Of a stretch of 44,414 bases of DNA, positions 7,309 through 31,722 are shown piece after piece. The notes beneath the pieces are model-generated. The model saw only the letters and a list, made by a program, of their open reading frames with translations. It did no database searches and was not told the DNA's origin. The translations under genes and the position numbers were made by a program. The stretch comes from Bacteroidales bacterium (GTDB lineage Bacteria; Bacteroidota; Bacteroidia; Bacteroidales; VadinHA17). The stretch is from assembly GCA_003162595.1 (NCBI GenBank), contig PMNJ01000345.1:1-44414 (forward strand), written 5' to 3'. Every line of letters starts with the position of its first letter. Within the stretch, counting starts at the first letter, position 1.

Positions 7309-8715
7309 TTAAATGCGAAATTGTTTGTAAGGACCTTTGTATTTTATAACAATTATATTATCAATTGAATCAATTGGTTGCTCGGGTAGATAGATCATCA
7401 AACCCTGAGAATGAACATCTACTTTTAATGGTTTCTTTTCTTTATCCGCAAGTAAATAAGCATTATTAAATTCATTGACAAAATCATTCAGGTAGAGCAT
7501 ATTATCCCCCGGCCACCGGAACAGGTGCAGATACAAAGTATTGGGTTTTGCTGTAATCCCGCTGATACTGTTATTCCATCTTACCGATGGTCCACCGCTT
7601 GTTGTGCCATATATAGCTTCACCATTTACAGAGAGCCAATTTCCTACTTTTTTCAAAATTGCCTGTGCTTTTTCGGGCATTACTCCCTCGCTTGTAGGGC
7701 CGACATTTAAAAGATAATTGCCACCTTTTGATGCTATGTCTACCAGATTAGAGATTACCTCATCTGCACTTTTAAAAGTAGTATCGGTTTTATTATATCC
7801 CCAGCTTCCGTTCAAAGTCATGCAAACTTCAAATGCAGTGCTTTGAGAACCGCCAGGTATTTCCTGTTCCGGAGTCCCATAATCTGCTCCGATGCCTCCC
7901 ATCCGGTTGTTAATAAGGCATTTGGGTTGCCATTTATGGATGGAATCAACCAAAGCTAAAGCCATTTCACGGTTCTGCAATTCATCCGGATCAAATGCCG
8001 GACCAGACCAATCCCACCAGATAATACCAATATCACCATAGTTTGTAAGAAGTTCCTTTACCTGACCTTCGAGATATGCGAAATACTTTTTATAGTCGGC
8101 ATCGCGATTGGGGAACCCATGAAATCCTTCTGGATACTGTTTGGTATGGTAAGTATATTTTACCGGAAACTGAGGATGGTGCCAATCCTTTACTGAATAA
8201 TAAAAGCATAATTTCAATCCCTGTTTTCTGCATTCTTCAGCAAGCGCTTTCATTGGATCCTTCCCATATGGTGTGGCATCTACAATATTATAATTCGTCA
8301 GTTTTGAATCGAACATGCAAAAGCCTTCATGGTGTTTGGCGGTTATGACTATATATTTCATACCTGCTTGTTTTGCCATTGACACCCATTCTTTAGCAAT
8401 AAACCTGACCGGATTAAATTGTTTTGCAAGTTTTTCATATTCCTCACCGGGAATATTGGCACTATATTGTATCCATTCCCCGTAATTTTTTCTCCCATTC
8501 CATTCGCCGGCCGGTACGGAATAAAGTCCCCAATGGATAAACAGACCAAATTTTGCTTCCTGGAACCATTCTAATTTCTTTGACGAATCAATGGCTGAAT
8601 CATTCTTGGCTGATTCGTTTTTTTTAAGGTTACAGGATAATAAACTTACTGAAAGCCAAACACTGATTATAACCAGTTTTAAATATGTTTTATAATTCAT
8701 ATGTTCTATTGTCAT
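7309..8715 (-). CDS. GH29 alpha-L-fucosidase, probable lipoprotein
   Basis: LEWFQEAKFGLFIHWGLYSVPAGEW, AKHHEGFCMFDS and IIWWDW blocks are typical of GH29. The signal peptide ends in LLSC (lipobox-like). An alternative start is the ATG at 8700. Confidence 0.9.
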   Translation of the reverse strand: MTIEHMNYKTYLKLVIISVWLSVSLLSCNLKKNESAKNDSAIDSSKKLEWFQEAKFGLFIHWGLYSVPAGEWNGRKNYGEWIQYSANIPGEEYEKLAKQFNPVRFIAKEWVSMAKQAGMKYIVITAKHHEGFCMFDSKLTNYNIVDATPYGKDPMKALAEECRKQGLKLCFYYSVKDWHHPQFPVKYTYHTKQYPEGFHGFPNRDADYKKYFAYLEGQVKELLTNYGDIGIIWWDWSGPAFDPDELQNREMALALVDSIHKWQPKCLINNRMGGIGADYGTPEQEIPGGSQSTAFEVCMTLNGSWGYNKTDTTFKSADEVISNLVDIASKGGNYLLNVGPTSEGVMPEKAQAILKKVGNWLSVNGEAIYGTTSGGPSVRWNNSISGITAKPNTLYLHLFRWPGDNMLYLNDFVNEFNNAYLLADKEKKPLKVDVHSQGLMIYLPEQPIDSIDNIIVIKYKGPYKQFRI

Positions 8716-8774
8716 TTTATTTAGTATCAGTTTAACTTATAATCAGTGCCAAAATTATTGTCACTTTAGGATTG

Positions 8775-10562
8775 TTAGTACTTCCATGGACTATTAGGTG
8801 TACCAAAATCTGAAGCCAATGGTCTCTGATTAAATGGCACAATTTTACCGGAATGGACATCTAATAATCGCTTGTTCGTTGCTTTAACGGCTTCCACCAT
8901 TTCCTTATATGGACGGTCATTGCCATCAATAAGTCCAATATTATAGTTCTCCCCATCGCCACGTCCCAATACCGGTTCGTCGCCCCATGCGAACCAATGG
9001 GCACCAAGGAAGCAACCAACCGATGCAGCCTGCTCCATATAATATCGGTATGCTTTCCCACGTTCAATCTGGTCCCTGGCCTGTACCAACCCGGCTCCAA
9101 GTCCGTTGGCCGGCACTCCTATATGGAACTCTCCGATTAAAATCGGGCGCCCGGTATAGCGGTATGACCTGTCAAGTTGCGCCATTGGCTCATACTCATA
9201 TACATTGATGCTGCAAACATCGAATTTCCTTCCTGTGCGGAGCAATGCGTCTGATGTCTCACCACCAAAACGTATTCCTAAATTTATATGATTCGGATCG
9301 TACTTCTTCATCGCAGCAATTGCCATATCAAGATATTTTTCGAATGAATTCATTACAAAATCAACACGACGTTTTGGAGTATCTCCCTTGGCAAGATATT
9401 CTTTGAGTTTATCCTGAATCGGTGCTTTGGGGCCGGCAAGGATCATGTCTACAACTTCACTTTCGCGGCCATCAAAGGCCGGTTCATTGCCCACGAAATA
9501 TCCTATTAAAAGAGGATCGTCCTTTAGTGCCGTACACTGAGTTTTTGCTGCCTCATCAATTACACTGGCAAAGTCTTCTGAATAAACATCAGGAAGACCA
9601 AAGATATTAATTCCCGTTTTCGGCCAGCGCATCATAGCTGTGTATGGTCTTCCCTTACCCCCTGTGGTCATCCCCCATGCCTTGAGGCGAGGAGTGGTTC
9701 TATCGACAACAGTTGCATCTTCCTGACCTCCTGGTCGTCCACTAAAACCTGCACCGGCACCATTAGCACCGGTAGATAGGTAGAGATGTCCGTGCGGATC
9801 AACAAACCACCACTTCCCGTCAATCTCTTCGACGTGGAAAAAGCCGGTAGCTTTCGCTTTGGTATCTTTATACGCGCCATATTCACAATAATTGAATTCA
9901 GCAGCGCTACTTTCCCATGTTTTTTCTTCGTCAGCAAGTTCTTTGGCGAGTTGTTCCTTACTTTTGATTTTCCCAGGCCAGTCGGCCCACTTCCACTGGT
10001 TAAATTCATCAAGTACCGGGGTCTTTTCAAGAAATTCTGATCCCTCATCCTGCTTTGAAAGATGCACCGCCCTTATCTCAACAACAGGCTTATTGATAGG
10101 ATACGGCATTGCAAATCCAAGGTATTCAATATTATTCAGACCTCCGAATGGCCCTGCTATTGAATACCAGAAAGAATTGGTCCGGCGGTTGGTTGCCGAG
10201 GCCAGATCAGTTCCGGTTTTGTCCATGCTTAGAAAATATTTAACAGGTACACAGGCTCTGAACCAGATATTCTGACCAAATGGCTGGATTTTAATACGCC
10301 CGGGTGTTCCATCACTCCTGTAGAGCCATAAACTAAACCTTTGGGGAGAAGTAGTTCTCATATCCATCACCAGATAGGTATAACCTGACCAATCTGACGG
10401 CATTGCCGGATTTAGATCTTTGATTGGGATCTTGAATTCACTGAGTGATCCATTAAATGCAAGTTTCCTGACTTCCTGCGCATTTGATATTGTAGAAAGA
10501 AGTATTATCAACTGTAAGGAAATCAATAAATTTCGCAGATTGGTTTTAAATAGATTGCACAT
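8775..10562 (-). CDS. Secreted protein with a clan-GH-A-like (beta/alpha)8 glycosidase signature; family not assignable
   Basis: 595 aa with a signal peptide (LLSTISNAQ). It has an N-terminal region of ~170 aa of unknown fold, then GFFHVEEIDGKWWFVDPHGHLYLSTG. A candidate acid/base lies in YFVGNEP (aa 356-361) and a candidate nucleophile in ILIGEFH (aa 474-480), about 118 aa later. It ends with GENYNIGLID..DRPY. The spacing and motif style fit clan GH-A, but I cannot name a family. Confidence 0.5.
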   Translation of the reverse strand: MCNLFKTNLRNLLISLQLIILLSTISNAQEVRKLAFNGSLSEFKIPIKDLNPAMPSDWSGYTYLVMDMRTTSPQRFSLWLYRSDGTPGRIKIQPFGQNIWFRACVPVKYFLSMDKTGTDLASATNRRTNSFWYSIAGPFGGLNNIEYLGFAMPYPINKPVVEIRAVHLSKQDEGSEFLEKTPVLDEFNQWKWADWPGKIKSKEQLAKELADEEKTWESSAAEFNYCEYGAYKDTKAKATGFFHVEEIDGKWWFVDPHGHLYLSTGANGAGAGFSGRPGGQEDATVVDRTTPRLKAWGMTTGGKGRPYTAMMRWPKTGINIFGLPDVYSEDFASVIDEAAKTQCTALKDDPLLIGYFVGNEPAFDGRESEVVDMILAGPKAPIQDKLKEYLAKGDTPKRRVDFVMNSFEKYLDMAIAAMKKYDPNHINLGIRFGGETSDALLRTGRKFDVCSINVYEYEPMAQLDRSYRYTGRPILIGEFHIGVPANGLGAGLVQARDQIERGKAYRYYMEQAASVGCFLGAHWFAWGDEPVLGRGDGENYNIGLIDGNDRPYKEMVEAVKATNKRLLDVHSGKIVPFNQRPLASDFGTPNSPWKY

Positions 10563-10598
10563 AATTCATTGTGTTAAGGTTTTTATTAAGTCAAATGG

Positions 10599-13500
10599 TT
10601 AAAGTTGCCCCAGAGAGATTTTAGCCCATAGGTTACTTACTGATAAATCAACAGCTTTTTTCAAGTTTTCCTTTGCCAGATCGCTGCTGCCAAGTCCCGT
10701 ATAACCTAGTCCTTTAAGCAGATAAGCATTTGATAACCTGACATTGTCAGACTCGTGTTCTCCGAACTTGGCAAAGAAATCAACATCGGCGGATGACCCA
10801 TTGTTAATTTGTTTCTCGCCATCTGCAATCAGAGAGTTGAAAATTTCAGCCGCTTCAGCCTTTTTACCAAGCTTAAGACAGCTCATGCCCTGGTAAAAAC
10901 TTATGTAATCCGAACTGCCTGAACCAGGTTCTGCACTTAAAGTAAAATATTTCTTTGCTTCTGATTTACTTCCCATTGCTTCATGGGTAATACCAATAAA
11001 ATAGTTTACCTGAATATTTCTGTTGTTTGATCTGTTTCCGCTTGCTTCTTCTTCAGGTACCTGGCCCAGTATAAAGTTCTCCAACGCTTTCTGATAATTT
11101 TTTTCTTCCAGATCTTTTAAACCAAGTGTCAGATAAGCGTCAATAATTATATCCCTGACTCTTGAGTTTCCCTCACGGTAATTGAATTGCTTTCCGGCTA
11201 AATATTCTACTGCTTTATCAGCTTTCCCTCCGAGAGTCAGCACTGCGATCTGACTTGCAAATGCGTTGTCACGTTTACTGACAATTTCATTCTTCCCTTC
11301 AAATAATTTGAGTCTTTTTTCAATGGGTGCATTGCTCATCGCATACAGATCTTCAAGCTCTTCATAATAAATTGGCTCATCTTTTTTAAGTTCAACTGCC
11401 TTTTCATATTCAGCTATTGCCTTATCTCTGTCGCCCTGGCACTGATAATATCCCCAACCCAGGTTGCGATGGGCGATAGCCATACCGGGATCATATTTCA
11501 CGGCATTTTCCCAATATCCGAGTGCTTTTTCAGGTTGTTTATCGTATAAAATGTTACCCAGATAATAATATGCTTTAGAGTCGGAGGAATTATATTTTAA
11601 AGCTGTTTCGAGTACTCTGATAGTTTCGAGACGGAACGGGAAGCAATAATCAACAGATTGCCCGGACCCGCTTTTGAAGTATTTTTCAGATTCTGCCTTG
11701 TTGCCTTTTTTATCTGAGAGATATCCCAGATAATAAGTTACGATCGGATCTTTTCCATTAAAACGAAGAAGGACATCTCTGGCTTCCTCATCTAATCCGT
11801 CGTTGATATATCCTACCGCAAGTTCAAGGTAATTCTGGTCAAAATCTCTCATTTTAGTTGTTAATGAGGTTAACTCCCTGTCTGAAACCTGGGTGTTGCC
11901 GGATTCTTTAGCTATCAGATATTTTTCGTTGTCTAACCTGAAATCCAGCGGATCAGTTTCAGTAACAGGAGCCAGAGTTGCAGAAGCATCCTTGTAATTT
12001 TTCATTTTTCTCAGGATGGATGCTTTAAGACCGATAGCGCTGTTGTTCCTCGAATTGGTCGTAAGTGACTCATTTATCTCATCCAGAGCCCTGGCAAAAT
12101 TTCCATTTATGGATGATATCCTTGCAAGTTCAAGATATGCTGCCGAATGATAGGCATAATCCCAGGTTGCACGGTAAAGCGTATCGATTGCCTCATCATA
12201 AAGCCCCAAAGCCTTTAATGTAAGCCCCTGAAGATAAAGAGCTTCGCATGTTGAGGGTCGGGTGTAATCTTTGGTTATCCTTTTTATGGCCTTACTAAAA
12301 TAGCTTCTTGCTTTTATGTAATCACCATTTTTAAGATATGTATTACCAACTGCGATATTAGTCCTTATATCGGACGGGTCGCGAAGCAGGGCTTCTTTAT
12401 AGTAATCCATCGGATTTATCGTAGGATTATAAAACTGTTCAATCCTGTTGCCTGTTAAATACAATTCTTCAATAGTGGCAATATTCTTGGGCAATGGAGG
12501 ACTTTCAACTATATCTGGAAGTTTTTCCTCGTACTTTTGTTCAACTGGTTGATAAGAAACCAGTACTTCGCCTGTTTCCGTATTGACCATTTCGGTGTAG
12601 AGATCCGTCAATTTGTAGATACCATCCATTTTTACTGACTGGGTGAAACCTGCTACAGGAGAAATCTCCAAATTCTTTTCAAAAATAACTTTACCGCTGT
12701 TTTTGAGGATAATTTTTGCTTTACTCACTTTCTGAGTGGAATAATAACCCAGAAATACAGTATTTTTTTCTCTTGATTCAAGATTAACTGCTCCGTTAAG
12801 GTTTGCATATTTGAAACCCTGTATATCTTTAATCGGGTACCAGTACTGTTTAAATGATTTTACTTCATAAGGCTTGATCCAGCTATAGTCAGGCTGATTA
12901 TCGGAAAATGCACCAACCATAATTTCCACATATGGTCCAGCATTCTCGGTCAGTCTGCTTTCAGTCGCCTGGCCGCGAGCACCTGATCCCCATTCCCATA
13001 ATTTTGCTCCTTTGACTATATTATGATCCCCGATATGAACCGTGCCTGTTTCCTTTCCATGATCGTATGCGCCCATAAAATCTTCTTTCAGGTCATAAGC
13101 AAAATATGAGTTTGCGCTAATTGTGTTTTTCCACCAACTTATATCGACACCTTTGGTAAAATCCTGTCCACGGTATACTTCCTTTGAAATAGGCCAGTGG
13201 GTAAAGTCGTTTTTAGCATGATAAGTTGCAAACTGCACACTGGGAGGGAAGATTACCTGATAATCTTTATCTGTATGGGCTGCCACATTGGCCCAATTTA
13301 AAAATGAATGAATATAAGGAGTTGGATTTAGTATTTTGACCTCCGCCTGAAAATAGGATTTCCCCGGAAATGCCGTAATCCCTATGGTCCATCTCATACG
13401 TTGCCGTGGTTCTGTTTCCCCGATCCAAATTGTTTTACTACCGTCCTTATTTTCAACCAGATCATAATCAACGGGTAAAAAGCATGAGGCTCTGTGATGA

Positions 13501-13952
13501 TGGAGTACGCACCATTCAATTCCTCCCGAGACCCAGGCTCCTGTCATCCCTATGTTGGTTGGTTTAACTACATCGTTTTTATAAACGAAATTATAATTAT
13601 CGGTCTTATCTGTTGCATAGTATAACTTCCCACCAATTTCAGGGGTAACACATAGTTTAATATATTCGTTTTCAAGCAATAAAGCTTTCCAGGCCTGATC
13701 TGTTTTTTTGTCGGAAATAACATCGTTTAATGCATATGGATAGATATATCTTGACGCTCCCTGGTAAGACTCATTCTTAAAGAATGCAGGATTTTTGTCT
13801 GGAGGCTCAACCTTATAAGTTGGAATAACCCATTGCTGTTCTGACATAGTAACTTGTGCCATCAGGTGATTCCCGATACAGGTAAAGAACACTGCAAGGA
13901 TAATGAGCTTCGAAAATCCTTTCCGGTAAAAAACACAAAAGTTATCTTTCAT
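10599..13952 (-). CDS. DUF5107-type N-terminal domain fused to a long TPR array (1117 aa, secreted)
   Basis: It has a signal peptide. The N-terminal ~470 aa (…LLENEYIKLCVTPEIGGKLYYATDK…GAWVSGGIEWCVLHHHR…) match my recollection of DUF5107, a mutarotase/supersandwich-like fold. The C-terminal ~640 aa show many 34-residue TPR-like units, for example AYYYLGNILYDKQPEKALGYWENAVKYDPGMAIAHRNLGWGYYQCQGDRDKAIAEYEKAVEL. Confidence 0.7.
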   Translation of the reverse strand: MKDNFCVFYRKGFSKLIILAVFFTCIGNHLMAQVTMSEQQWVIPTYKVEPPDKNPAFFKNESYQGASRYIYPYALNDVISDKKTDQAWKALLLENEYIKLCVTPEIGGKLYYATDKTDNYNFVYKNDVVKPTNIGMTGAWVSGGIEWCVLHHHRASCFLPVDYDLVENKDGSKTIWIGETEPRQRMRWTIGITAFPGKSYFQAEVKILNPTPYIHSFLNWANVAAHTDKDYQVIFPPSVQFATYHAKNDFTHWPISKEVYRGQDFTKGVDISWWKNTISANSYFAYDLKEDFMGAYDHGKETGTVHIGDHNIVKGAKLWEWGSGARGQATESRLTENAGPYVEIMVGAFSDNQPDYSWIKPYEVKSFKQYWYPIKDIQGFKYANLNGAVNLESREKNTVFLGYYSTQKVSKAKIILKNSGKVIFEKNLEISPVAGFTQSVKMDGIYKLTDLYTEMVNTETGEVLVSYQPVEQKYEEKLPDIVESPPLPKNIATIEELYLTGNRIEQFYNPTINPMDYYKEALLRDPSDIRTNIAVGNTYLKNGDYIKARSYFSKAIKRITKDYTRPSTCEALYLQGLTLKALGLYDEAIDTLYRATWDYAYHSAAYLELARISSINGNFARALDEINESLTTNSRNNSAIGLKASILRKMKNYKDASATLAPVTETDPLDFRLDNEKYLIAKESGNTQVSDRELTSLTTKMRDFDQNYLELAVGYINDGLDEEARDVLLRFNGKDPIVTYYLGYLSDKKGNKAESEKYFKSGSGQSVDYCFPFRLETIRVLETALKYNSSDSKAYYYLGNILYDKQPEKALGYWENAVKYDPGMAIAHRNLGWGYYQCQGDRDKAIAEYEKAVELKKDEPIYYEELEDLYAMSNAPIEKRLKLFEGKNEIVSKRDNAFASQIAVLTLGGKADKAVEYLAGKQFNYREGNSRVRDIIIDAYLTLGLKDLEEKNYQKALENFILGQVPEEEASGNRSNNRNIQVNYFIGITHEAMGSKSEAKKYFTLSAEPGSGSSDYISFYQGMSCLKLGKKAEAAEIFNSLIADGEKQINNGSSADVDFFAKFGEHESDNVRLSNAYLLKGLGYTGLGSSDLAKENLKKAVDLSVSNLWAKISLGQL

Positions 13953-14114
13953 AGAAGTGGTATTTAATTTATTTATCTGAATTAATTAAAATTTAATTTG
14001 AAAAGATTGCTCAGGATATATAATAAGATGCTGAATAAAGAATTTTCCCCAACTACATAATTTAATTTATAGTTGTAATAATAATCGTCAGGGTTAATCA
14101 CAGAATATATCTAT

Positions 14115-15743
14115 TCATTTCCCCGATATTTTTAATACATAAGCATATTGACAAGGTTGCGAAGCAGGTAACTGAACTGTAAGACCCTTCTCATTTTGAA
14201 CCCATTTTAATAAATCTTTTGAACCAAGCATTTGAATATCTCTTATTTCTCCAAACCAGAGCGCTTTTCCTTTATGCAATGATTTTATTGTGACCTCTTT
14301 CCCGGGCCAGGCCATCAGAATGGCATAAATACTTTTGCCCTTGGTTGTAAACCTGATGTCTTCAGCAGTGTATTCTTTTGGCCGGTTGCTTTGATTTCCT
14401 CTTACTTCCTGTACCTTAGTGGGTCCTTCTCCCATAATTTCCCATGGCCGTGTCCCGTGAATGGCCTCGCTGTTTACGGCCATCCATTGCGCCATTTCAT
14501 CAAGGAACTTATAGTAAGCATCAACGATGGTACCATCGGCACGAAGGTTAATATTTAGCAACAGATTCCCATTTTTACTTACTATATCCACCAGTTGTAA
14601 TACTACATCCTTTGTAAGGATGGGGCCTCTTCCCGAATATATGAGATACATGGGATTGATATAGAAAAATCCATCAAGGCCAGTATCAGTTTGCCAGGGA
14701 TATTTTCTTGGTATATCGCTCTGTGCGTTTTCAAGATCCAAAACAAGTGCTTTCTGCTGTTCTTCCGAACGCGATCCTTTAACATTAATTACAATCTCGT
14801 TTTTGCCGTTGTTCCATTTTTGACTTTGATTATAATAATAAGAGGCCATATCCAACCTGCGGAAAGGAAGACCGCCATCGTAATAAATCAGGTCAGGGTG
14901 ATAGTTGTCTATCAGGTCGACCATGCGGTTTATAAGAATCTGTTTAAAAAGTGAATCGGGTTGATCACCGTCATCACCAGGGAAAGGGCCTGAATAGGCT
15001 CCCTGCTTAGATCCTTTATGAGGCTGCCCGTATAAATCCCGCGGATCATACCCTTCCCACCATTTGCCTTTACCATCGGCCTTTGTCATCCATCCATCAT
15101 ATGGAACTCCTTTCAATGGTCCTGTTGTATCGGCCATGCGGGAAATCTCCCAGTATCTCCAGGTGCCTTCCCCATGATTTGAGACACCGAATTTCATGTT
15201 ATTATGTTTTGCAGCATTCTGCCATTCCTTCACTATATCCCTTTTAGGGCCCATATTCACTACATTCCATGGCTGATATTTGGAGTTCCACATATCGAAG
15301 TTATCGTGATGCATAGCCATGGACACAAAATATCGTGCGCCTGCCTTGTAGTAGAGTTTCATTAAAGCTTCGGGATCCCATTTAGCGCACGTGAATAAAG
15401 GAATTAAATCCTTAAACCCAAATTCAGAAGGGTGACCATATTTAATCAGGTGATAAGAGTAAGCGGGTATCAAATCAGGGAACGCCCAATTATTATCCTG
15501 TATATACAGTCGTCTGGGAAACCAGTCCCCGTACTCTGCCACACTGTTCGGACCCCAATGGGCCCAGATTCCAAACTTGGCATCGCGGAACCAATCGGGG
15601 CAATCGTATTGTTGGGAAAGCGATTCCCATGTCGGTTCAAAAGGTCCGGTTTTCGGCAGAAGCGGCTGTGCGGAACTGACAATGGACATTACCACAAAAA
15701 GCATACTGCATAGGCTAATTCGTGTAACAACATTCATTTTCAT
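14115..15743 (-). CDS. GH29 alpha-L-fucosidase (second, divergent paralogue)
   Basis: DWFRDAKFGIWAHWGPNSVAEYGDW, MAMHHDNFDMWNS and LIYYDGG blocks. SPI-type signal peptide (IVSSAQP). Confidence 0.9.
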   Translation of the reverse strand: MKMNVVTRISLCSMLFVVMSIVSSAQPLLPKTGPFEPTWESLSQQYDCPDWFRDAKFGIWAHWGPNSVAEYGDWFPRRLYIQDNNWAFPDLIPAYSYHLIKYGHPSEFGFKDLIPLFTCAKWDPEALMKLYYKAGARYFVSMAMHHDNFDMWNSKYQPWNVVNMGPKRDIVKEWQNAAKHNNMKFGVSNHGEGTWRYWEISRMADTTGPLKGVPYDGWMTKADGKGKWWEGYDPRDLYGQPHKGSKQGAYSGPFPGDDGDQPDSLFKQILINRMVDLIDNYHPDLIYYDGGLPFRRLDMASYYYNQSQKWNNGKNEIVINVKGSRSEEQQKALVLDLENAQSDIPRKYPWQTDTGLDGFFYINPMYLIYSGRGPILTKDVVLQLVDIVSKNGNLLLNINLRADGTIVDAYYKFLDEMAQWMAVNSEAIHGTRPWEIMGEGPTKVQEVRGNQSNRPKEYTAEDIRFTTKGKSIYAILMAWPGKEVTIKSLHKGKALWFGEIRDIQMLGSKDLLKWVQNEKGLTVQLPASQPCQYAYVLKISGK

Positions 15744-15833
15744 AATCTCTTAAATATTAAAATATATAGAATACAATTTAAAAACCTTTTAATAATTCAA
15801 TAACCGGATAACCTGATTACTTATTCTATTTAT

Positions 15834-15916
15834 AGCTTTCGCGGTTACTTTAATAATAAAATTAATTAGTTTCCCTCTTTTAAATTTCTTTTCAATATTA
15901 ATTTAATTCAAAAAGG
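15834..15916. repeat. Intergenic repeat family, copy C
   Basis: AGCTTTCGCGGTTACTTTAA (15834-15853) is 18/20 identical to 1524-1543. It is followed by TCTTTTAAA and AATTCAAAAAGG segments in the same order as copy A. It lies between the beta-helix gene stop (15959) and the GH29 start (15743). Confidence 0.6.
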
Positions 15917-15958
15917 ATCCGGGCAGGTCTGTAATCAGCCCTGGAACCTGAAATACAA

Positions 15959-17704
15959 TTATTTAACCGGAACCAGATTGACTTTTACCAGCACTATACC
16001 TGCCGGGCCCCTCTGTTCGGGATCTTCAGAAAGAATAGGTTTCCCCTGATCCGCAATAATGTTATTTACAATCTGATTTCCGGTTGAAGTAAGTCTTCGA
16101 CCTCCCAATGAACGATCTGTTGCTACCATGCACACTACCTGCTCTTCAGAAACGTTAGCCAACAAATTATGCGCTATAATGGCGTTATCAGTATCAGCGA
16201 GACGTACACCTTCTCCATCGACATTCCAAAGGATATTATTATCGACCATATTTAGTACCTGTGATGCCTCAATGAAAATAGCCCCCTGCACTGTATTTAT
16301 GTCTAGAAGTACATTTCTTGTGACTCGAGAATTCTGATTAGCAAAATCCAGCCAGATTCCGCAACCACCCTGTATGTGCGAAATATAATTATTCTTTACC
16401 AGTGTCCCGCTGGCACCAAGTAGTTTAATCCCGGCAACTTCCCAATGAAACTCAGCATCCTGCCACCCACAATCAGAGACATTATTTTCCTCAACTATTG
16501 CGTTTGATGTACCGAGACCCCGTATTCCAGCTGTACCGCAACCGCAAACGACATTTCGTCGTACGATATAGTGCCCTATGTTCAAATCCACGGATCGATT
16601 GGCAGGTTGTTCCTGTCCTTGTGCAGGAGGTTGACCTTGTCCTACCACGTTTCGGGGATTCCTCGAATCTTTACCCTCGTAAGCCCGATCACCCATCTCT
16701 ATCCCTAATGAGTTGACGTTCCGTACTGTATTTCCCTCTATAATCCAATGATGTCCACCCATAGTAAAGAGTGCTCCTTCTCCAGTGCGAAGAAATCCAT
16801 TGGCGCAATGCTCTATAATCAATCCGCTAATTCGAATATATCCTAAACCAATAGATTGGGGCTGAATTATATGATGTTGCACGGCGATTTCAAACAACTG
16901 ATTATTCGGATTTTTATTACCAAATGGATGAATATGAATAGTCTTACAATCGGGCCCTACCCAGTAAGAGCCGGGTAAACGAACTAGGTCCTCATACACA
17001 GCTAATTGTGACATACGTCGTCCTTCCTGGAACAGTAAACAGCGTGGAAGTATATATGGTATGCGACCTTTCCACCTTGATGCCCAGTTCATCATCTCGA
17101 ATTCTGCGTCAGTAGTGTTAGGGGTCTTTAACGGGAAGTAACCGTTTTCAAACATATTATCAGGCAGTATCGTCATCAGAATTTGCTTTGAATATGAGTT
17201 AGCAGGAAAACCCAATTCTATGTTTAATTTCAGGCTGCCTGAGGCGGCAAGCGAATCATGAGGATCGACAGATAATACCCACTTCGAAGTAATCACACGC
17301 GAGCCCCGTATTATTACCTGTTCGCCCGGTGCGGCCTCGTATGATATCATTTTGTCAGGTCCTTCTCCAGAATGGAGTGGCCGGACTAATTCCCTGTAGG
17401 TACCTGAATGTATGTAAACCCGTTCGCCAGGCTTCACAACCTGCGCGGCGTGGTTTATAGTCAGAAAAGGGTGTTCTTCTGTCCCATCATTTTCGTCAGA
17501 CGCCTTTGGGTCATTCTGGCTTACGTGATAGGTTCTGGTATAGGTTGTCTGATCGCTCCAACTCATAAATGGGGTCCCGTCAGGCAGTAAAGTTTGCGAA
17601 ACTAAAGGCTGGTAATTTACATCCTTCCTGATCTGCGCCTTTGAAACAAAACTATATGATAATAAAATAAAAGCTAATACAAAAAAAACGGCGATCTTTC
17701 TCAT
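15959..17704 (-). CDS. Secreted right-handed parallel beta-helix repeat protein (pectate-lyase fold; GH141-like or PL-like, unassigned)
   Basis: It has a signal peptide. An N-terminal cap motif, NDGTEEHPFLTINHAAQVVKPGERVYIHSGTYRE, is typical of this fold. Later coils are periodic: IIEGNTVRNV, IVRRNVV, IVEENNVSDC, LVKNNYISHI, VTRNVLLDIN, MVDNNILWNV, IIAHNLLANV. A Gln/Pro/Gly-rich insertion, VVGQGQPPAQGQEQPA, lies at about nt 16592-16684. Confidence 0.7.
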   Translation of the reverse strand: MRKIAVFFVLAFILLSYSFVSKAQIRKDVNYQPLVSQTLLPDGTPFMSWSDQTTYTRTYHVSQNDPKASDENDGTEEHPFLTINHAAQVVKPGERVYIHSGTYRELVRPLHSGEGPDKMISYEAAPGEQVIIRGSRVITSKWVLSVDPHDSLAASGSLKLNIELGFPANSYSKQILMTILPDNMFENGYFPLKTPNTTDAEFEMMNWASRWKGRIPYILPRCLLFQEGRRMSQLAVYEDLVRLPGSYWVGPDCKTIHIHPFGNKNPNNQLFEIAVQHHIIQPQSIGLGYIRISGLIIEHCANGFLRTGEGALFTMGGHHWIIEGNTVRNVNSLGIEMGDRAYEGKDSRNPRNVVGQGQPPAQGQEQPANRSVDLNIGHYIVRRNVVCGCGTAGIRGLGTSNAIVEENNVSDCGWQDAEFHWEVAGIKLLGASGTLVKNNYISHIQGGCGIWLDFANQNSRVTRNVLLDINTVQGAIFIEASQVLNMVDNNILWNVDGEGVRLADTDNAIIAHNLLANVSEEQVVCMVATDRSLGGRRLTSTGNQIVNNIIADQGKPILSEDPEQRGPAGIVLVKVNLVPVK

Positions 17705-17736
17705 AGCAAATTGAGTTATTTACTTTATATTCATGG

Positions 17737-19029
17737 TTAATCGGAAATTGACTGAAAGACAAGGTTTTTGAACTTGCCGATCAGATTTTCACTCCAGTAA
17801 TTATCTACCTGCGACATAAAAATTCCGATTAGATCTTCCTTCGGATCAACCCAGAAGCGAGTATAGAATGCTCCATCCCATCCGAATGTTCCGAGCGACT
17901 CGAGTTCATCAAATATTCCTCTTTCGGTACGTATCCCAAATCCATAACCGAATTTATCTCCCATTATCCCGTTGTGGGCAAAAGAAGTAAAAATGAAGAT
18001 ATTGCCTATAGAATTTGTAGTCATTAATTCAACACTCTTCCGGCTTAGTATCTGTTTCCCTTCCAGTTCCCCCTTATTCAATAACATTTGCGCGAATCTT
18101 GCATAATCAGTGGCAGTAGAAACCAGGCCGGCTCCGCCTGAAAAATAGGTCTGAGGTTCAGGGTATTGAAAATACTTGGTAACCTTTTCAAGTTTGCCAT
18201 TGGCTCCCATTATGTATAAAGTGGCCAGTCGTGGGAACTTATCACGGGGAAGGGTAAAATATGTATCCTGCATTTTCAAAGGTTCAAAAATCCGTTTCCT
18301 CATGAATTCATCCAGTGGCATCTTGCTTACCACCTCAATGAGATAACCGAGCACATCGACAGACATGCCATAATTAAATTCTTCTCCTGGTTGTGAAACA
18401 AGTGGTAATGGTCCCAGATTTTTTATCATATCGCCTATTGTCCCTTTGGTAGGCAGCAATCCGACTGTCATTCCTGCCTGCCTGTAATATATTCCCTGCA
18501 AAGCGCTGCCATAAGTAATGCCGGAGGTATGGTTAAGCAGTTCCCGTATGGTAATTTCACTTTTTGCAGGTACGAGAATAATACTGTCAGATGTGGGAGA
18601 TCTCTCAGCCACCTTAGGGTTCTTAAACTCAGGTATGAATTTTGAAACAGGATCGGTAAGAAGAAAATAGCCTTCCTCATATAAAGTCATTACGGCAACT
18701 GAAGTTATTGCTTTAGTCATTGAAGCTATCCGGAATATAGCGTCATTTGTCATTGGTTTTTTTTCTTCAATATCCTTCAACCCGAAAGATTTGAAATACC
18801 CTACTTTGCCATGACGAATCACCATAGCTACTGCACCTGGCAATTTCCCTTGTTTTATATAATCGTTTAACACCGTATCTATCCGGTTTAACCTTTCAGA
18901 AGAGAGACCTATTTTTTCAGGAACAGTGGCAGGAAGTCCCTGCCCCGGAGCAATCCATGCTGTAGATAACAGTATTAAAAAAAAGAGGATCATTTTATAA
19001 GTTACTGTAATGAAATGATTTCGTATCAT
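17737..19029 (-). CDS. Beta-lactamase-fold serine hydrolase (class C/PBP4-like; candidate esterase)
   Basis: An S-x-x-K motif occurs in FRIASMTKAITSVAVM about 90 aa from the N-terminus. Signal peptide present. Length (430 aa) and overall pattern are typical of 'serine hydrolase domain-containing' proteins. Confidence 0.8.
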   Translation of the reverse strand: MIRNHFITVTYKMILFFLILLSTAWIAPGQGLPATVPEKIGLSSERLNRIDTVLNDYIKQGKLPGAVAMVIRHGKVGYFKSFGLKDIEEKKPMTNDAIFRIASMTKAITSVAVMTLYEEGYFLLTDPVSKFIPEFKNPKVAERSPTSDSIILVPAKSEITIRELLNHTSGITYGSALQGIYYRQAGMTVGLLPTKGTIGDMIKNLGPLPLVSQPGEEFNYGMSVDVLGYLIEVVSKMPLDEFMRKRIFEPLKMQDTYFTLPRDKFPRLATLYIMGANGKLEKVTKYFQYPEPQTYFSGGAGLVSTATDYARFAQMLLNKGELEGKQILSRKSVELMTTNSIGNIFIFTSFAHNGIMGDKFGYGFGIRTERGIFDELESLGTFGWDGAFYTRFWVDPKEDLIGIFMSQVDNYWSENLIGKFKNLVFQSISD

Positions 19030-19066
19030 TATATTTCGTTTCTAAATTGAAATCTCTAATTCTTGG

Positions 19067-21196: not shown

Positions 21197-21251
21197 ATTG
21201 GTATATTTTCGCAATTAACTATTTCTAGAAAATATTATAAATCCACTTTTT

Positions 21252-24170
21252 TCAATTTCCATTACGATCCTGTCGATGGCCAGAGATACGGGCCAGAATC
21301 CGATCAAGAGCAACCGCATCAAAATATTCCTGATCCTGATTCTCGTAAGGTACATCAACCATTATAGGTACTTTAGGCTTCAGGCTGATAAATTTAACCA
21401 GTTCTTCCTCATGGTTCGATCCTGCGATCGGTCCGTAAACATTCCATCTCAGGCCTTCAAGGTCATAAGCCGAAGTACTAACAATCCACATGCCAATATG
21501 CTCTATGATCTCAGACGTGATTTCCTTTGGATCGGTCTTTGAGTCCATCAGCAGTGCAGTGCTAGGCGCAAGTTTCAGATTGGGGGCCCCTACCCTTTTG
21601 AGGAATTGCATCGCCTCAATCAGGTCGCTTGGCGGTCTGTTGGGCGCCAGACGAAGATAGACCGTTATATTACGCAATTCTGCTTCGCGACAAATTTTAG
21701 CAATAGTAGTATCATAACTCTTCCATGTGGCCTCATGTGAAATATTATTTTCGACGTATCTCTGAAGCGGAATCAGCAGATCATGTGCACCCAGAATTTC
21801 CATTTTCTCCACAACGTCGAGAATGCTTGCCACACTTTGTTTATATTCCGGTTCTATGTTGTTCACGATCCTGAGATCGGGAAAAAGGTTGATTCCCGAT
21901 GTCAGATCCACCATAACCCTTACCTTTTGCAACCCAAGCCAGCCTGCTTCCTGTTTAAGGGTCGATTTCTCAAGATGGGCTAAGTATTTCCAGTCTACGG
22001 TAACTCCGTCATAATGCTGGAAGAAGGTCGGCCTTGTAAGTATCTCATCCTGTATATTAACGGGTCCATGCAATGGAAGAAAACGATTTTGGGGATTAGC
22101 CGGAGGAGTAATATGAGCAATTTCTTCTACCCCTTCCTCCTTCACCCTGATATGGAAGATCCGGATATCACCGCCAGCGATAGTGTTCTTTCCGCTCGTG
22201 CCGATAATTGCATTCTCAAAGCCTTCCGGTAAATAACCGATGGCTTTTTTCTCAGACTGATCAAGCGGCATTTCATCAATTGTTTGTATCGGTCCAACTT
22301 TCGATACGATCCTTAATGGCAATTCCGTCAATGAGTTATTGGAAATACCGAGAGTGTAGTCGCCAGTCCCGCGCCGGCATACGATCAGTGAAAGCCCATC
22401 ACCGGCATCGAACAATTTCAGGCTCTGAAAGGCCTGATCCAGAATATCCCGGACATGATGCAGAATAGGATATGGATTTACTAACGGCTTATCTACAGGG
22501 CTTACTATTGGTTCCTTAACAGTGGTTTCTGCTCCAATCCCAAAGGGACTTGCAAACACCGTAATCATACCATTGCCCAGCGGCATCCTTATTACCGCCG
22601 GTGTCCCGTTCACACTGGCCAGAATCTGCGCTCCGGCAGGAACACTCAGGGGTAACAGTTCAAATGGCTGGCCCTCTGTGATCGAACCAGATCCAATAGA
22701 AATCTTTTGCTCACCGCTGAAAAGTCTGGCATGTCCTTCACTTTCAATACCAGCCAGACCACCTGGCAGATTCCGGAGACTGCCGGCCGTGATTAACAGA
22801 TTTCCGCCATGTTCAGCATAGGTACGGAGTTTGTCGCGAACCTCTGCCCCTCCGGAAAGTTCTCCTGCTACAATCATTAACGGATACCTCTCCAGAAGCC
22901 ACTCCGGTGCATCACTCAGGATGACATCAGATGCATCTCCATAGGGTGTGCTCGTTGCGAAACCTGTTTCGTCGTGAAAAAATGAAGAGTTCTGGTAGCC
23001 CGGGTAAAGCATATCAAAAATATTGTTTGTGAGATAATCTCCGCTGCCGTACGGAAGATTTCCCCACACACGGTAAAGGATATTATCGTAATCCGGAAAA
23101 ATCCAGCCCATATAGAAATCCATCATAATACATATCGGCGTTTGCATTACGCCGGGTTGGCCATTTACCCTGACCCATCTCTGGGCCGACTGCTGAATTT
23201 TACCGATAGGTGATAAGCTGTCGCCAGCGAACCATTCATTCTCGAAACCTACCAGCATTGAGTTATATAAAATGTGGCTGTAAAGAAGACGTTTCAGAAG
23301 ACTGAGACTGGTTCCCTTTGTGGGACTGCTTCTGGTGTCACCATAGCTCTTTCCTCCCCAGCGATTATAAATTGAGGCATTACCGAACCACGGCACACCA
23401 TACTCTTTACCTGCACCACGGTCAAACGCGTAAAACACCTGGGCATTTGGGTGTTCCTGCGCTGCCTCGGAACCTACTAATGTATATAACCCCTCCTTTA
23501 AAAAATAGTGCCCGTATGTAATAGCCGTAAGAGCGGCCATTTTGTTTCCGCACTCACTTGTTATCTTCTCCATATGCCTGTGAAAATTCAGATATTGCTG
23601 GGGCCGGTTAGCTGACGAAGGATACATCTGGCTGGCATAAGCTATAACGTAGCGTCCATCCTGTTCTCCCATATCCATGCCCAGCCAGTGGTCTCCGAGT
23701 TTTGTCTCAAACAAGCTTGATATCTCGGGAGTTAAGCCAACTTGCTGCCACTGCCCACCAGAGCCTGAACCCGGAACATAGCCCCATATCTCATACAAGA
23801 ATAGGTCACGCTTTTTTATTTCGTCTACCAGATCGGGGATGTTTTTAGCAACAAGGAATGAATTATTCGGCCAGATGAAATCGCCCAGATCAAATGTCTT
23901 TGTAAAACGCTCTATCTCCTCAGCGTAACCGGTAAGTTGTCCGTTTACCACACGAAATTGTCGCAGCGTTGTGAAATGCGTCCGGTCACCCATGAGGTTC
24001 CAATCCGGTGGCTTCACATGCCTGCGGGCATCATCCGGGTATTCGCGTGGATTGAGTAATTGCCCGTAAACCTTTAACCTGGCAGTGTGGATTGTCTGTG
24101 CACGCAGTGGTTGAACAATAACTAAAGTCAATATGAAGGCAATGGAAAGTCCAGATATCATTCTATTCAT
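21252..24170 (-). CDS. Large secreted multidomain protein of unknown family (GH42-like architecture plus an extra C-terminal TIM-like domain, by inference)
   Basis: 972 aa with a signal peptide (VQPLRAQ). aa ~25-410 contain MDMGEQDGRY and LVGFENEWF motifs. aa ~415-480, YPLMIVAGELSGGAEVRDKLRTYAEHGGNLLITAGS, resemble the GH42 middle (trimerisation/glutamine-amidotransferase-like) domain. aa ~590-680 look like a beta-sandwich. aa ~700-960 resemble a xylose-isomerase-like TIM barrel. I recognise no family-diagnostic motif. Confidence 0.55.
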   Translation of the reverse strand: MNRMISGLSIAFILTLVIVQPLRAQTIHTARLKVYGQLLNPREYPDDARRHVKPPDWNLMGDRTHFTTLRQFRVVNGQLTGYAEEIERFTKTFDLGDFIWPNNSFLVAKNIPDLVDEIKKRDLFLYEIWGYVPGSGSGGQWQQVGLTPEISSLFETKLGDHWLGMDMGEQDGRYVIAYASQMYPSSANRPQQYLNFHRHMEKITSECGNKMAALTAITYGHYFLKEGLYTLVGSEAAQEHPNAQVFYAFDRGAGKEYGVPWFGNASIYNRWGGKSYGDTRSSPTKGTSLSLLKRLLYSHILYNSMLVGFENEWFAGDSLSPIGKIQQSAQRWVRVNGQPGVMQTPICIMMDFYMGWIFPDYDNILYRVWGNLPYGSGDYLTNNIFDMLYPGYQNSSFFHDETGFATSTPYGDASDVILSDAPEWLLERYPLMIVAGELSGGAEVRDKLRTYAEHGGNLLITAGSLRNLPGGLAGIESEGHARLFSGEQKISIGSGSITEGQPFELLPLSVPAGAQILASVNGTPAVIRMPLGNGMITVFASPFGIGAETTVKEPIVSPVDKPLVNPYPILHHVRDILDQAFQSLKLFDAGDGLSLIVCRRGTGDYTLGISNNSLTELPLRIVSKVGPIQTIDEMPLDQSEKKAIGYLPEGFENAIIGTSGKNTIAGGDIRIFHIRVKEEGVEEIAHITPPANPQNRFLPLHGPVNIQDEILTRPTFFQHYDGVTVDWKYLAHLEKSTLKQEAGWLGLQKVRVMVDLTSGINLFPDLRIVNNIEPEYKQSVASILDVVEKMEILGAHDLLIPLQRYVENNISHEATWKSYDTTIAKICREAELRNITVYLRLAPNRPPSDLIEAMQFLKRVGAPNLKLAPSTALLMDSKTDPKEITSEIIEHIGMWIVSTSAYDLEGLRWNVYGPIAGSNHEEELVKFISLKPKVPIMVDVPYENQDQEYFDAVALDRILARISGHRQDRNGN

Positions 24171-24325
24171 GAGTTCGTCTTTGATATTTTTAATATAATA
24201 ATTAAACAGATCTACCAGGCTTCTATAGATAGTATATATAAAATCCTGTTACTGATAGAAACTGAAAAAGAAAATAATAAACCTTGCAAACAGATTTGGA
24301 AACTGAAATTCAGGTATTCTTATAT

Positions 24326-24365
24326 ATAAAAAAATGATGGAGGTTAAGAAGTCTCAACCTCCATC
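24326..24365 (-). terminator. Intrinsic terminator immediately downstream of susD
   Basis: The minus-strand RNA reads GAUGGAGGUU-GAGACUUCUU-AACCUCCAUC followed by AUUUUUUUAUAUA. The stem is a perfect 10 bp (24336-24345 / 24356-24365) and the U7 tract corresponds to 24328-24334. It starts 7 nt after the susD stop codon (24372-24374). Confidence 0.7.
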
Positions 24366-24371
24366 AAATAA

Positions 24372-26156: not shown

Positions 26157-26176
26157 CTTATTATGATTTTAATAAT

Positions 26177-29653: not shown

Positions 29654-29803
29654 AGATTTGAATGGATTAAGTTTACTTAAGTTTTTTAACAGAAATCTAG
29701 TTCTTAGTCTGGCGGGATTGTGTGGTAGCACTATCCCGCTTTTTTCATAATTAGCTTTGTTTCATAAGCATATCATTTTATTGGTTAGGATCATGTTCGT
29801 ATT

Positions 29804-30892: not shown

Positions 30893-30915
30893 TTCTTAAA
30901 AATATTTTAGGCAAA

Positions 30916-30946
30916 AAGCACTTCCGGTCCTATACCGGAAGCGCTT
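30916..30946 (-). promoter_or_regulatory. Stable hairpin with a U-rich tail in the sigma/anti-sigma spacer (candidate attenuator or terminator)
   Basis: The minus-strand RNA reads AAGCGCUUCCGGU-AUAGG-ACCGGAAGUGCUU followed by UUUGCC. The stem is 13 bp including one G-U pair, which would be an A-C mismatch on the opposite strand. It lies 24-54 nt upstream of the fecR-like ATG (30892). Confidence 0.35.
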
Positions 30947-31134
30947 CATTACCCTTAACTAACCTGACAACTAACCAAACATAATCCCAAAAACCCAATC
31001 TGTATCCGTATAAAAGTAGTATTGACTTCAACTGATTAGCCGGGCTTTTCAATAGTAAGACGTAGTAAAAGGTAATAACCACTACCTGGAAAATAAATTT
31101 ATATAAATTAATTTTATTACTTTGAATATCAATA

Positions 31135-31722
31135 CTATACAAAAAGATGCAAAAAGAGTATTGCAATGAGAGAATAATTGCCCAGTTTTTTACGGATAGT
31201 TTTTAGTGCCCGAGACATATGGTTTTCAATAGTATTTACAGAAATATCTAAGAGTACTGCAATTTCGCTATATTTCAGGGCTTCAACCTTATGCAGCAGA
31301 TAAACCTCTTTTTGGCGCTGAGGTAATGCGTATACAATTTCATTTATTTTATTTGTCAACTCAGTATATTCAAGTTCCATATTGACAGGCTTCTCGTAGA
31401 TTATTTGCAGAGACTTCAAATATTCAACAAACTTAGATTCCATCGCTTTTTTACGGAGAATGGAAATAGCTGAATTATAAGTTATAGCGAATATATAGGA
31501 TTTAATTGATGAGTCCTTCTCAACTTTATGTCGATTTTCCCACAAATTAAGAAAAACATCCTGAACAAGGTTCTCTGTCTCTTCATGTGATTTAAGAAGA
31601 GAATAACCAAACTTATAGAGCTTTTTACTATACTTTTTATATATAAGATCAAAAGCAAACATATTGTCAGCCTTGATTTCCCGCATTAATTCTTCATCAC
31701 TATATAAAATAAGTTCTTTCAT
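31135..31722 (-). CDS. ECF-type RNA polymerase sigma-70 factor (Bacteroides PUL-associated type)
   Basis: 195 aa. Region 2: FDLIYKKYSKKLYKFGYSLLKSHEETENLVQDVFLNLW. Region 4 HTH: RQKEVYLLHKVEALKYSEIAVLLDISVNTIENHMSRALKTIRKKL. It lies directly upstream of the FecR-like gene. Confidence 0.9.
   Translation of the reverse strand: MKELILYSDEELMREIKADNMFAFDLIYKKYSKKLYKFGYSLLKSHEETENLVQDVFLNLWENRHKVEKDSSIKSYIFAITYNSAISILRKKAMESKFVEYLKSLQIIYEKPVNMELEYTELTNKINEIVYALPQRQKEVYLLHKVEALKYSEIAVLLDISVNTIENHMSRALKTIRKKLGNYSLIAILFLHLFV

Follow-up and report, generated by a model that had tools for sequence, protein, structure and literature searches.

The 44,414-nucleotide stretch of contig PMNJ01000345.1 considered here, hereafter the window, carries on its minus strand a polysaccharide utilization locus (PUL) in which adjacent susC and susD genes are followed by co-oriented genes for carbohydrate-active enzymes (CAZymes). 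It is a genuine PUL and, with genes for an extracytoplasmic function (ECF) sigma factor and a FecR-type anti-sigma factor immediately upstream of susC, it has the arrangement of PULs under sigma/anti-sigma control. Every large open reading frame (ORF) from 31722 to 6682 is on this strand. Near-identical or identical proteins are found on many metagenome contigs and in one Bacteroidales metagenome-assembled genome (MAG) (accessions MGC139207x), and the DNA comes from an uncultured member of the Bacteroidales. As a system, the locus is of an ordinary type. Two of its products, a protein of 972 aa and one of 1117 aa that joins DUF5107 to tetratricopeptide repeats (TPRs), belong to large, widespread, uncharacterized families, and the predicted structure of the former makes it a credible, well-supported candidate for a new glycoside hydrolase (GH) family as judged against Pfam, NCBIfam and the PDB.

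Gene content and regulation of the locus

Gene identities were obtained from scans of Pfam-A (2025) and NCBIfam release 20 (June 2026) and are collected with their positions in Table 1. The order ECF sigma factor, FecR, SusC, SusD and the gene coordinates given in an original prediction for this DNA agree with the ORF list and the Pfam matches. SusC had been described there as carrying an STN domain; an N-terminal extension of ~160 aa is present ahead of the CarbopepD_reg domain, whereas the STN match (residues 100-131, E 6.3e-5) is weak, at 23.1 bits against a cut-off of 28.4. By analogy, the sigma/FecR/SusC arrangement supports signaling across the cell envelope. Known PULs with an ECF sigma/anti-sigma pair, such as those for host glycans in Bacteroides thetaiotaomicron, have the same order of sigma factor, FecR, extended SusC and SusD, together with co-oriented glycosidase genes that include fucosidases. 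Unlike them, the locus described here is without GH20, GH33, GH18 and sulfatase genes, contains GH120-like, GH50-like, DUF5107 and 972-aa family members, and resides in an uncultured host. In the literature searched, no characterized PUL carrying this combination of genes turned up.

Table 1. Positions of the genes and the hairpin at the locus, in order along the minus strand, and the basis of each assignment
Feature	Positions	Strand	Basis
ECF-type sigma factor, 195 aa	31135..31722	-	Sigma70_r2 E 1.1e-11, Sigma70_r4_2 E 1.1e-15
FecR-type anti-sigma factor, 362 aa	29804..30892	-	FecR E 3.8e-14, FecR_C E 3.1e-20
SusC-like TonB-dependent transporter, 1184 aa	26177..29731	-	CarbopepD_reg_2, Plug, TonB_dep_Rec_b-barrel
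SusD-like glycan-binding lipoprotein, 594 aa	24372..26156	-	SusD_RagB E 5.1e-38, SusD-like_3
Terminator-like hairpin, 14-bp stem and T-run	24335..24366	-	Consensus scan
972-aa protein	21252..24170	-	Sole Pfam match AP_endonuc_2, below cut-off
GH2 glycosidase, 715 aa	19067..21214	-	Glyco_hydro_2_N, Glyco_hydro_2, Glyco_hydro_2_C, C5 domains
β-Lactamase-fold serine hydrolase, 430 aa	17737..19029	-	Beta-lactamase Pfam E 2.9e-67
581-aa right-handed β-helix protein	15959..17704	-	phmmer to GH120 XylC; Beta_helix Pfam E 1.2e-15
GH29 α-L-fucosidase, 542 aa	14115..15743	-	Alpha_L_fucos E 9.8e-82, Fucosidase_C
DUF5107-TPR protein, 1117 aa	10599..13952	-	DUF5107 E 1.6e-57 and TPR families
595-aa protein	8775..10562	-	phmmer to GH50; no Pfam or NCBIfam match
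GH29 α-L-fucosidase, 468 aa	7309..8715	-	Alpha_L_fucos E 1.7e-98
RhaM-family deoxy-sugar mutarotase, 135 aa	6682..7089	-	rhaM Pfam E 1.3e-25

Nine same-strand genes had been counted downstream of susD. Eight of them lie within 7309-24170, and the ninth, the rhaM mutarotase gene, falls outside this range, beyond its lower end. Pfam domains bear out the three classical CAZymes that had been named (the GH2 and the two GH29 proteins) as well as the deoxy-sugar mutarotase, and Pfam scans detected no sulfatase among the large ORFs of the window, again as predicted. In each of the four large proteins that had been proposed to be secreted (the 972-aa, 581-aa, DUF5107-TPR and 595-aa proteins), inspection shows the N terminus to be a hydrophobic stretch that resembles a signal peptide and ends in AQ. 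The GH2 protein is assigned to the β-galactosidase or β-glucuronidase type, its best NCBIfam matches being GalA, GalB and LacZ4, each under its own cut-off. The β-lactamase-fold protein is a probable esterase or deacylase, for which the closest NCBIfam match is the methyl acetate hydrolase AcmB (E 2.8e-53, under cut-off). The β-lactamase fold is not known to be a CAZy esterase family, and this is therefore a fifth gene of the enzyme arm without a CAZy assignment.

The terminator-like hairpin begins six bases past the susD stop codon, ~165 bp ahead of the 972-aa gene, and has 6 GC pairs in its 14-bp stem. It may attenuate transcription between the transporter and the enzyme genes; hairpins after susD that dampen transcription without ending it are common in Bacteroides PULs. 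The genes for the 972-aa protein, the first GH29, the DUF5107-TPR protein and RhaM each come after a gap of 160-220 bp, and the five remaining junctions are short (32-59 bp). Co-regulation of the whole enzyme arm is plausible, and the hairpin after susD and the several gaps of ~200 bp leave it unproven. The earlier description of the locus as one regulon is thus not established by its sequence. A scan for sigma-70 promoters was uninformative, returning 59 sites where 48.7 were expected with a consensus that is not the Bacteroidota one.

The 581-aa and 595-aa proteins

In a phmmer search of PDB sequences, the 581-aa protein matches XylC, a GH120 β-xylosidase of Thermoanaerobacterium saccharolyticum (PDB 3vst), with an E value of 2.7e-34. 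The alignment extends over two segments only, residues 59-140 and 255-494, and the stretch between them is unrelated. In XylC, Asp382 is the nucleophile and Glu405 the acid/base, and the -1 subsite for xylose is made up of W113, Q289, E353, K358, H360, W383 and R450 (PMC3507262). D382 and E405 match the D of a WLDF motif and the E of an IFIEAS motif in the 581-aa protein, in which E353 and K358 are also kept. Three sugar-contacting residues are altered (H352→W, H360→L and W383→F), and the other positions of the -1 subsite fall in unaligned or poorly aligned regions. The xylose subsite of XylC is thus not retained in full, which bears on specificity and not on GH120 membership. Judged from this alignment, the 581-aa protein is a distant member of GH120 that has the right-handed β-helix and the catalytic Asp/Glu pair in common with XylC and in which the catalytic apparatus has been kept while the sugar pocket was remodeled. 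It is very probably a retaining glycosidase, and not necessarily a xylosidase, since three of its sugar-contacting residues differ from those of XylC. Weak matches to pectate-lyase-type families are confined to an N-terminal cap. Marine fucoidan PULs list GH120 as a putative xylosidase; unlike those, the present locus is without a sulfatase.

The 595-aa protein has no match in Pfam or NCBIfam and looked like an orphan because Pfam does not recognize it. A phmmer search of PDB sequences related it to the GH50 agarases (6xj9, E 1.9e-44; 4bq2, E 1.8e-43; 5z6p, E 5e-34). N359-E360 aligns with the NE acid/base motif of clan GH-A, and E478, in a GEFH motif, with the nucleophile, which is likewise in a GEFH motif in 6xj9. 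These alignments identify the protein as a distant member of GH50, within clan GH-A. The clan GH-A barrel and the NE and nucleophile Glu motifs are common to it and to the GH50 β-agarases (Aga50D, 4bq2; 6xj9), from which it differs in length (595 aa against ~750-765 aa) and in its N-terminal part, similarity being restricted to three segments. Nothing in the locus suggests agar, and GH50 is not made up of agarases alone, as it also includes a β-galactosidase and β-1,3-glucanases (PMC11079163). Both the 581-aa and the 595-aa proteins probably carry a non-canonical specificity. No published PUL uniting GH120, GH50 and GH29 was found in the literature searched.

These assignments alter the picture from which the analysis began. 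The original prediction held that the enzyme arm is dominated by proteins without a CAZy family, a view that was to be given up if all four of the large secreted proteins scored to characterized families. Two of them, the 581-aa and 595-aa proteins, do score and two do not, so that "dominated" was an overstatement; the lack of an assignable family holds for the 972-aa and DUF5107-TPR proteins alone. The guess that the 595-aa protein is clan-A-like was right, and its family could be assigned as well. As for new GH families at the locus, one strong candidate is left in the 972-aa protein and a weaker one in the DUF5107-TPR protein.

The 972-aa and DUF5107-TPR proteins

Neither Pfam nor NCBIfam matches the first ~700 residues of the 972-aa protein, and PDB sequences gave no match to this part whether they were searched with the single sequence or with a profile. 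The sole Pfam match of the protein, to AP_endonuc_2, covers residues 758-893 and scores 26.1 bits against a cut-off of 31.1, and a 30-sequence profile gave only marginal PDB matches, to ketose epimerases and for this C-terminal domain. Yet the family is large. A word-indexed search returned >1000 homologues, many of them 50-55% identical in other phyla, and an exhaustive search returned 1240 clusters at 50% identity. Sequences from Bacteroidota, Acidobacteriota, Planctomycetota and Verrucomicrobiota are 45-55% identical to one another, and matches in genomes come from these phyla as well as from Hydrogenedentota, Nitrospiraceae, Kiritimatiellae, Spirochaetales and Clostridia. Members are present in soil, sediment and gut MAGs and in isolates that include Aquisphaera insulae and Parabacteroides leei, and all of the 120 homologues listed are named "hypothetical" or "TIM barrel protein" in their sources. 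Distant relatives are fused to CBM_4_9, ricin-B lectin (RicinB), Big_2 or dockerin domains; fusions to carbohydrate-binding modules (CBMs) and dockerins are typical of secreted carbohydrate-active enzymes.

The alignment of the family was used for an AlphaFold2 model (mean pLDDT 80, pTM 0.82), which predicts a (β/α)8 barrel (residues ~60-400), a Rossmann/GATase-like domain (~410-560), a β-sandwich (~590-700) and a C-terminal TIM barrel (~700-972). Foldseek matched this model in the PDB to GH42 enzymes (5xb7, 8ibr, 4ucf), the GH35 transglycosylase IaSGT (7vl3) and the GH164 β-mannosidase (6t7g), with E ~1e-13, probability 1.0, TMt 0.44-0.51 and 10-12% identity. The predicted TIM barrel, GATase-like domain and β-sandwich, residues ~60-700, are common to the 972-aa protein and these enzymes, whereas the additional C-terminal TIM barrel of ~270 aa sets it apart, as does the lack of detectable sequence or profile similarity to them. 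That last region gave Foldseek matches to D-psicose/tagatose 3-epimerases (TMt 0.73 for 8xiv). Remote homology to GH42 or GH35 was also considered and was dropped, neither hhalign nor the PDB profile search having returned anything.

In clan GH-A, the acid/base residue follows strand 4 of the barrel and the nucleophile follows strand 7. The barrel strands of the 972-aa protein are predicted at ~65-70, 98-102, 123-129, 162-166, 211-216, 262-265, 306-309 and 346-350, which places E169, within a G-E-Q-D-G motif, after predicted strand 4 and E310 after predicted strand 7. In an alignment of 96 representatives, mutually <50% identical, E169 and D171 are each conserved in 95 sequences and E310 in 92, with an Asp in 3 more; H221, E401, D415 and D420 are conserved in at least 90% of them. 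The protein most likely belongs to an undescribed family of retaining glycoside hydrolases, in which a clan-GH-A-like barrel would use E169 as acid/base and E310 as nucleophile. The fold and the residue conservation stand on the comparisons just given; the catalytic roles and the activity are what we infer.

Several observations weigh against this reading. The strands of the barrel were assigned from the order of secondary structure alone and not from coordinates, and parts of it are predicted with low confidence (pLDDT <50 for residues 134-141, 211-216, 230-233, 269-285 and 355-374). The residue that precedes E169 is a Gly and not the Asn usual in clan GH-A, giving GE for NE. Alignment of the family profile by hhalign with the window's own GH35-like protein and with a GH42 gave a probability of <1%. 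The gene neighborhoods of this family, and of DUF5107, are heterogeneous. Finally, an existing CAZy family that lacks both a Pfam model and a solved structure may already include the protein.

The C-terminal barrel does not appear to hold the active site. Only P714 and D755 within it are conserved in at least 90% of the 96 relatives, most of the invariant residues being in the N-terminal barrel. At the positions of the profile alignment that we take to be the Glu, Asp and His metal ligands of D-tagatose 3-epimerase, R840, P/S and a hydrophobic residue are found in the family. With its low conservation and the loss of these ligands, this barrel is probably a degenerate, xylose-isomerase-like accessory domain without catalytic function, and a catalytic isomerase or lyase in this place was set aside as unlikely.

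In the DUF5107-TPR protein, the N-terminal ~470 residues constitute the DUF5107 domain and the remainder is a TPR solenoid. Its sole solved relative is BDI_1685 of Parabacteroides distasonis (PDB 5cd6; E 3.5e-22, by profile 4e-31), a structural-genomics entry of 580 aa without an assigned function since 2015, in which a DUF5107 domain is likewise followed by TPR repeats. A profile search of the PDB with DUF5107 found 5cd6 only and no sequence similarity to true mutarotases, and in the literature searched DUF5107 is mentioned only in one unrelated paper. The AlphaFold2 model (pLDDT 75, and poor past residue ~885, where the alignment lacks coverage) predicts an N-terminal mutarotase-like supersandwich at ~35-470. 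Foldseek matched the model to 5cd6 and its β-domain to the aldose-1-epimerase-like protein 3ty1 (E 3.9e-8, TMt 0.54), with which this predicted fold is held in common. AlphaFold and Foldseek were among the checks proposed with the original prediction for all four large proteins, and for the two that stay without a family they gave a GH42/GH35/GH164-like predicted fold for one and a mutarotase-like predicted fold for the other.

The DUF5107-TPR family has members in Bacteroidota, Planctomycetota, Acidobacteriota and Fidelibacterota that share 45-60% identity. Its invariant polar residues include E146, H151-H152-H153-R154, E179, E181, D297, E343 and the stretch N352-Q-P-D-Y-S-W358. 5cd6 has I-S-H in place of the triple His and therefore stands for a divergent branch. 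The conserved His/acid cluster, set on a mutarotase fold, suggests that the protein catalyzes a reaction of sugars, for example epimerization or anomerization and possibly hydrolysis or elimination, although it may instead have a binding or scaffolding role. Most likely, the protein works in the periplasm as an enzyme acting on sugars or as a module that binds them, with the mutarotase fold mounted on a TPR scaffold. On two long contigs (L044, 8001-11394; L045, 8001-11640) gene calling gives two adjacent genes for the homologue, DUF5107 with TPRs (~800-820 aa) and then TPRs only (307-387 aa), which together align with the full 1117 aa; these are either split genes or frameshifts.

Genomic context, alternative readings and substrate

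The comparison of neighborhoods took in 972-aa homologues from 35 genome loci and 7 metagenome contigs, and DUF5107 homologues from 84 loci. The synteny comparison that had been proposed for the locus found its gene order only in near-identical metagenome contigs (99-100% identical; L005-L008), and 972-aa homologues at 56-73% identity are in unrelated contexts. As this order does not recur elsewhere, the gene combination of the window is specific to its lineage, and conserved synteny was dropped as a guide to substrate. The heterogeneity of the neighborhoods also means that context gives no substrate for either family. What does recur is the position of the 972-aa gene directly after susC/susD, seen in four other Bacteroidota loci (L002, L025, L026 and L032), among them one of Chitinophagaceae with sigma/FecR genes and a GH95 gene following, and one of Parabacteroides leei. 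The homologue of an acidobacterial locus (L004) has the gene of a TonB-dependent receptor one gene upstream of it, and in L129 the gene directly upstream encodes a TonB-dependent-type outer-membrane β-barrel protein. A Pfam scan of 100 proteins flanking 972-aa homologues found scattered exo-glycosidases, the commonest families being GH106 and GH20 (3 each) and GH95, GH29 and BNR sialidase-like proteins (2 each), with GH123 and GH89 found once each. These neighbors hint at glycans rich in deoxyhexose or hexosamine and are not decisive.

Two ruminant-gut MAGs of Clostridia (L040 and L042), which derive from the rectum of roe deer and goat, have tandem 972-aa paralogues interleaved with GH20C-type hexosaminidase genes (paralogues at 2227-5076, 8972-11851 and 12878-15730 in L040 and at 2541-5417 and 10344-13202 in L042), and L042 alone also has a GH109-like oxidoreductase and a sialate O-acetylesterase. 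This arrangement looks like a host-glycan signature.

DUF5107 genes are found among CAZyme genes in four contigs (L044-L047). One of these, a Bacteroidota PUL (L047, 435-14915), has a GH50-like gene (40% identical) adjoining the DUF5107-TPR gene (60% identical), together with two sulfatases, two β-helix proteins, a GH43 and a Glyco_hydro_cc protein. This PUL comes closest to having a module in common with the window, there associated with a sulfated substrate. A functional pairing of DUF5107 with GH50-like or GH35-like enzymes, suggested by L047 and L044, was dropped, such genes being present in only 3 and 1, respectively, of 80 further DUF5107 metagenome loci, in which GH2 occurs in 8 and GH29 in 3; a Pfam scan of the DUF5107 flanks revealed no dominant partner family. 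URO-D-like genes, of the uroporphyrinogen decarboxylase/methyltransferase type, recur beside both families (2 of 100 neighbors of 972-aa homologues and 5 of 109 neighbors of DUF5107), and one is also present in L131 (8480-9649).

The PUL is embedded in a larger CAZyme island. Upstream on the same strand, the window has genes for an AraA-like isomerase, GH78, GH31, a GH35-like/DUF5597 protein and GH95, and the ORF at its edge (43980-44315) encodes the C-terminal end of an arabinofuranosidase of GH51. A contig that reaches past this edge (L048) adds at least 10 kb more of the island, with GH51, an esterase, a LacZ-type GH2, a GH27 with NPCBM and a second GH95. Downstream of the locus are genes for a RhaT/GlcU-like symporter and an FGGY kinase of the xylulokinase type, the latter scoring right at the XylB cut-off. 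The isomerase gene (32221-33681, minus strand) adjoins the sigma gene immediately upstream; its 486-aa product resembles L-arabinose isomerase (E 4.6e-15) and the sulfoquinovose isomerase SftI (E 9.4e-14), both far under their cut-offs. The GC content is 0.49-0.505 at 2001-6000, a region that spans the FGGY kinase gene (minus strand) and a convergent glycerol-3-phosphate dehydrogenase gene (plus strand, 1868-3643), against ~0.38-0.44 in the remaining window.

Other readings of the locus have to be set against this evidence. It is rather unlikely that the eight or nine enzyme genes are no single regulon, the sigma/anti-sigma pair controlling susC and susD only, and the same grade applies to the corollary that the downstream genes are transcribed on their own, as one section of a mosaic CAZyme island serving several substrates. 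A strong terminator-like hairpin directly after susD, the four 160-220 bp gaps, the run of CAZyme genes that continues on the same strand for >20 kb upstream, and a gene order not kept in other lineages would all fit such a division; however, the genes are all co-oriented with five junctions of merely 32-59 bp, four other Bacteroidota loci also have the 972-aa homologue directly after susC/susD, and attenuating hairpins are common in this position in Bacteroides PULs. We doubt, too, that the locus is an ordinary PUL with nothing new in it, all four of the supposed orphans being members of established CAZy families, two of these recent and without a Pfam model or structure. Two of the four were indeed assigned once PDB sequences were searched, Pfam missed GH50 entirely, which makes a missing Pfam match weak evidence, and some CAZy families have no solved structure. 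Yet the 972-aa family has no counterpart above cut-off in Pfam-A or NCBIfam and none among PDB sequences, compared with a single sequence or a profile, the source names of its listed homologues are uninformative throughout, and the literature searched offers nothing relevant on DUF5107.

The remaining alternatives concern what the two proteins do. That one or both are non-enzymatic, acting as glycan-binding, scaffolding or chaperone-like accessory proteins, is unlikely; examples would be a TPR solenoid organizing a periplasmic enzyme complex or a catalytically dead GH42-like barrel. TPR solenoids are typical protein-protein interaction modules, 5cd6 keeps only one His of the HHHR motif, the neighbors of DUF5107 are very heterogeneous and often not CAZymes, and the canonical metal ligands are gone from the C-terminal barrel of the 972-aa protein. 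Against this, relatives of that protein that are <50% identical keep near-invariant charged residues at barrel positions typical of catalysis, the invariant His/Glu/Asp cluster that DUF5107 keeps at 45-50% identity across phyla resembles an active site more than a binding surface, and CBM and dockerin fusions are typical of enzymes. Very improbable, in our view, is action of the 972-aa protein through its C-terminal xylose-isomerase-like barrel, as an isomerase, epimerase or keto-glycoside lyase in an oxidative, non-hydrolytic cleavage. The weak AP_endonuc_2 match, the fold resembling ketose 3-epimerases (TMt 0.73), the stand-alone AP_endonuc_2, GFO/IDH/MocA, SDR or 3-keto-disaccharide-hydrolase genes that adjoin some homologues (L001, L004) and the similar neighbors of DUF5107 homologues in L045 and L046 would be consistent with it. 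The residues at the metal-ligand positions are, however, replaced and the domain is poorly conserved relative to the N-terminal barrel; oxidoreductase families are so abundant in Planctomycetota and Verrucomicrobiota that the adjacency may be due to chance, and the window holds no such oxidoreductase gene.

Taken as a whole, the evidence is best explained by a sigma/anti-sigma PUL of an uncultured Bacteroidales bacterium, set in a CAZyme island and with two members outside characterized families. By analogy with known systems, SusC and SusD would bind and import the glycan, its import would be signaled via the N-terminal extension of SusC to FecR and the ECF sigma factor, and periplasmic enzymes would strip the glycan stepwise. 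The set would comprise two GH29 fucosidases, the GH2 enzyme, the β-lactamase-fold esterase, a divergent GH120-type retaining β-helix glycosidase and a divergent GH50-type glycosidase, alongside the putative retaining hydrolase of 972 aa and the DUF5107-TPR protein as a presumptive sugar-acting or sugar-binding component. To this explanation in full we give slightly better than an even chance. A bolder version, tentative and a little short of even, makes the 972-aa protein the founding member of a new, large, multi-phylum GH family and the lead enzyme of several sigma/anti-sigma PULs, with DUF5107-TPR, built on a mutarotase fold, as another new family of enzymes. The 972-aa protein would then have a barrel that is clan-GH-A-like while unrecognizable by sequence, joined to a unique degenerate C-terminal TIM barrel.

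From the enzyme complement we infer that the substrate is most likely a fucosylated heteroglycan that contains galactose and/or xylose, may be acylated and would come from plants, algae or microbes; the original idea of a fucose-decorated complex glycan is a reasonable guess. The two GH29 proteins, the deoxy-sugar mutarotase, the galactosidase/glucuronidase-type GH2, the probable esterase, the glycosidases related to β-xylosidase and to β-galactan/β-glucan hydrolases, the GH95, GH31, GH35-like, GH51, GH27 and GH78 genes of the island and the downstream xylulokinase jointly suggest such a glycan. Classical fucoidan is disfavored because there are no sulfatases.

"Hypothetical" genes within PULs are still the main source of new CAZy families, each of which makes a class of glycosidic linkages open to annotation across thousands of genomes. 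The value of the present locus is that it provides a concrete, clonable starting point. Assigning an activity to the 972-aa protein would improve the annotation of carbohydrate turnover well beyond this locus, and the same would apply, with less certainty, to DUF5107.

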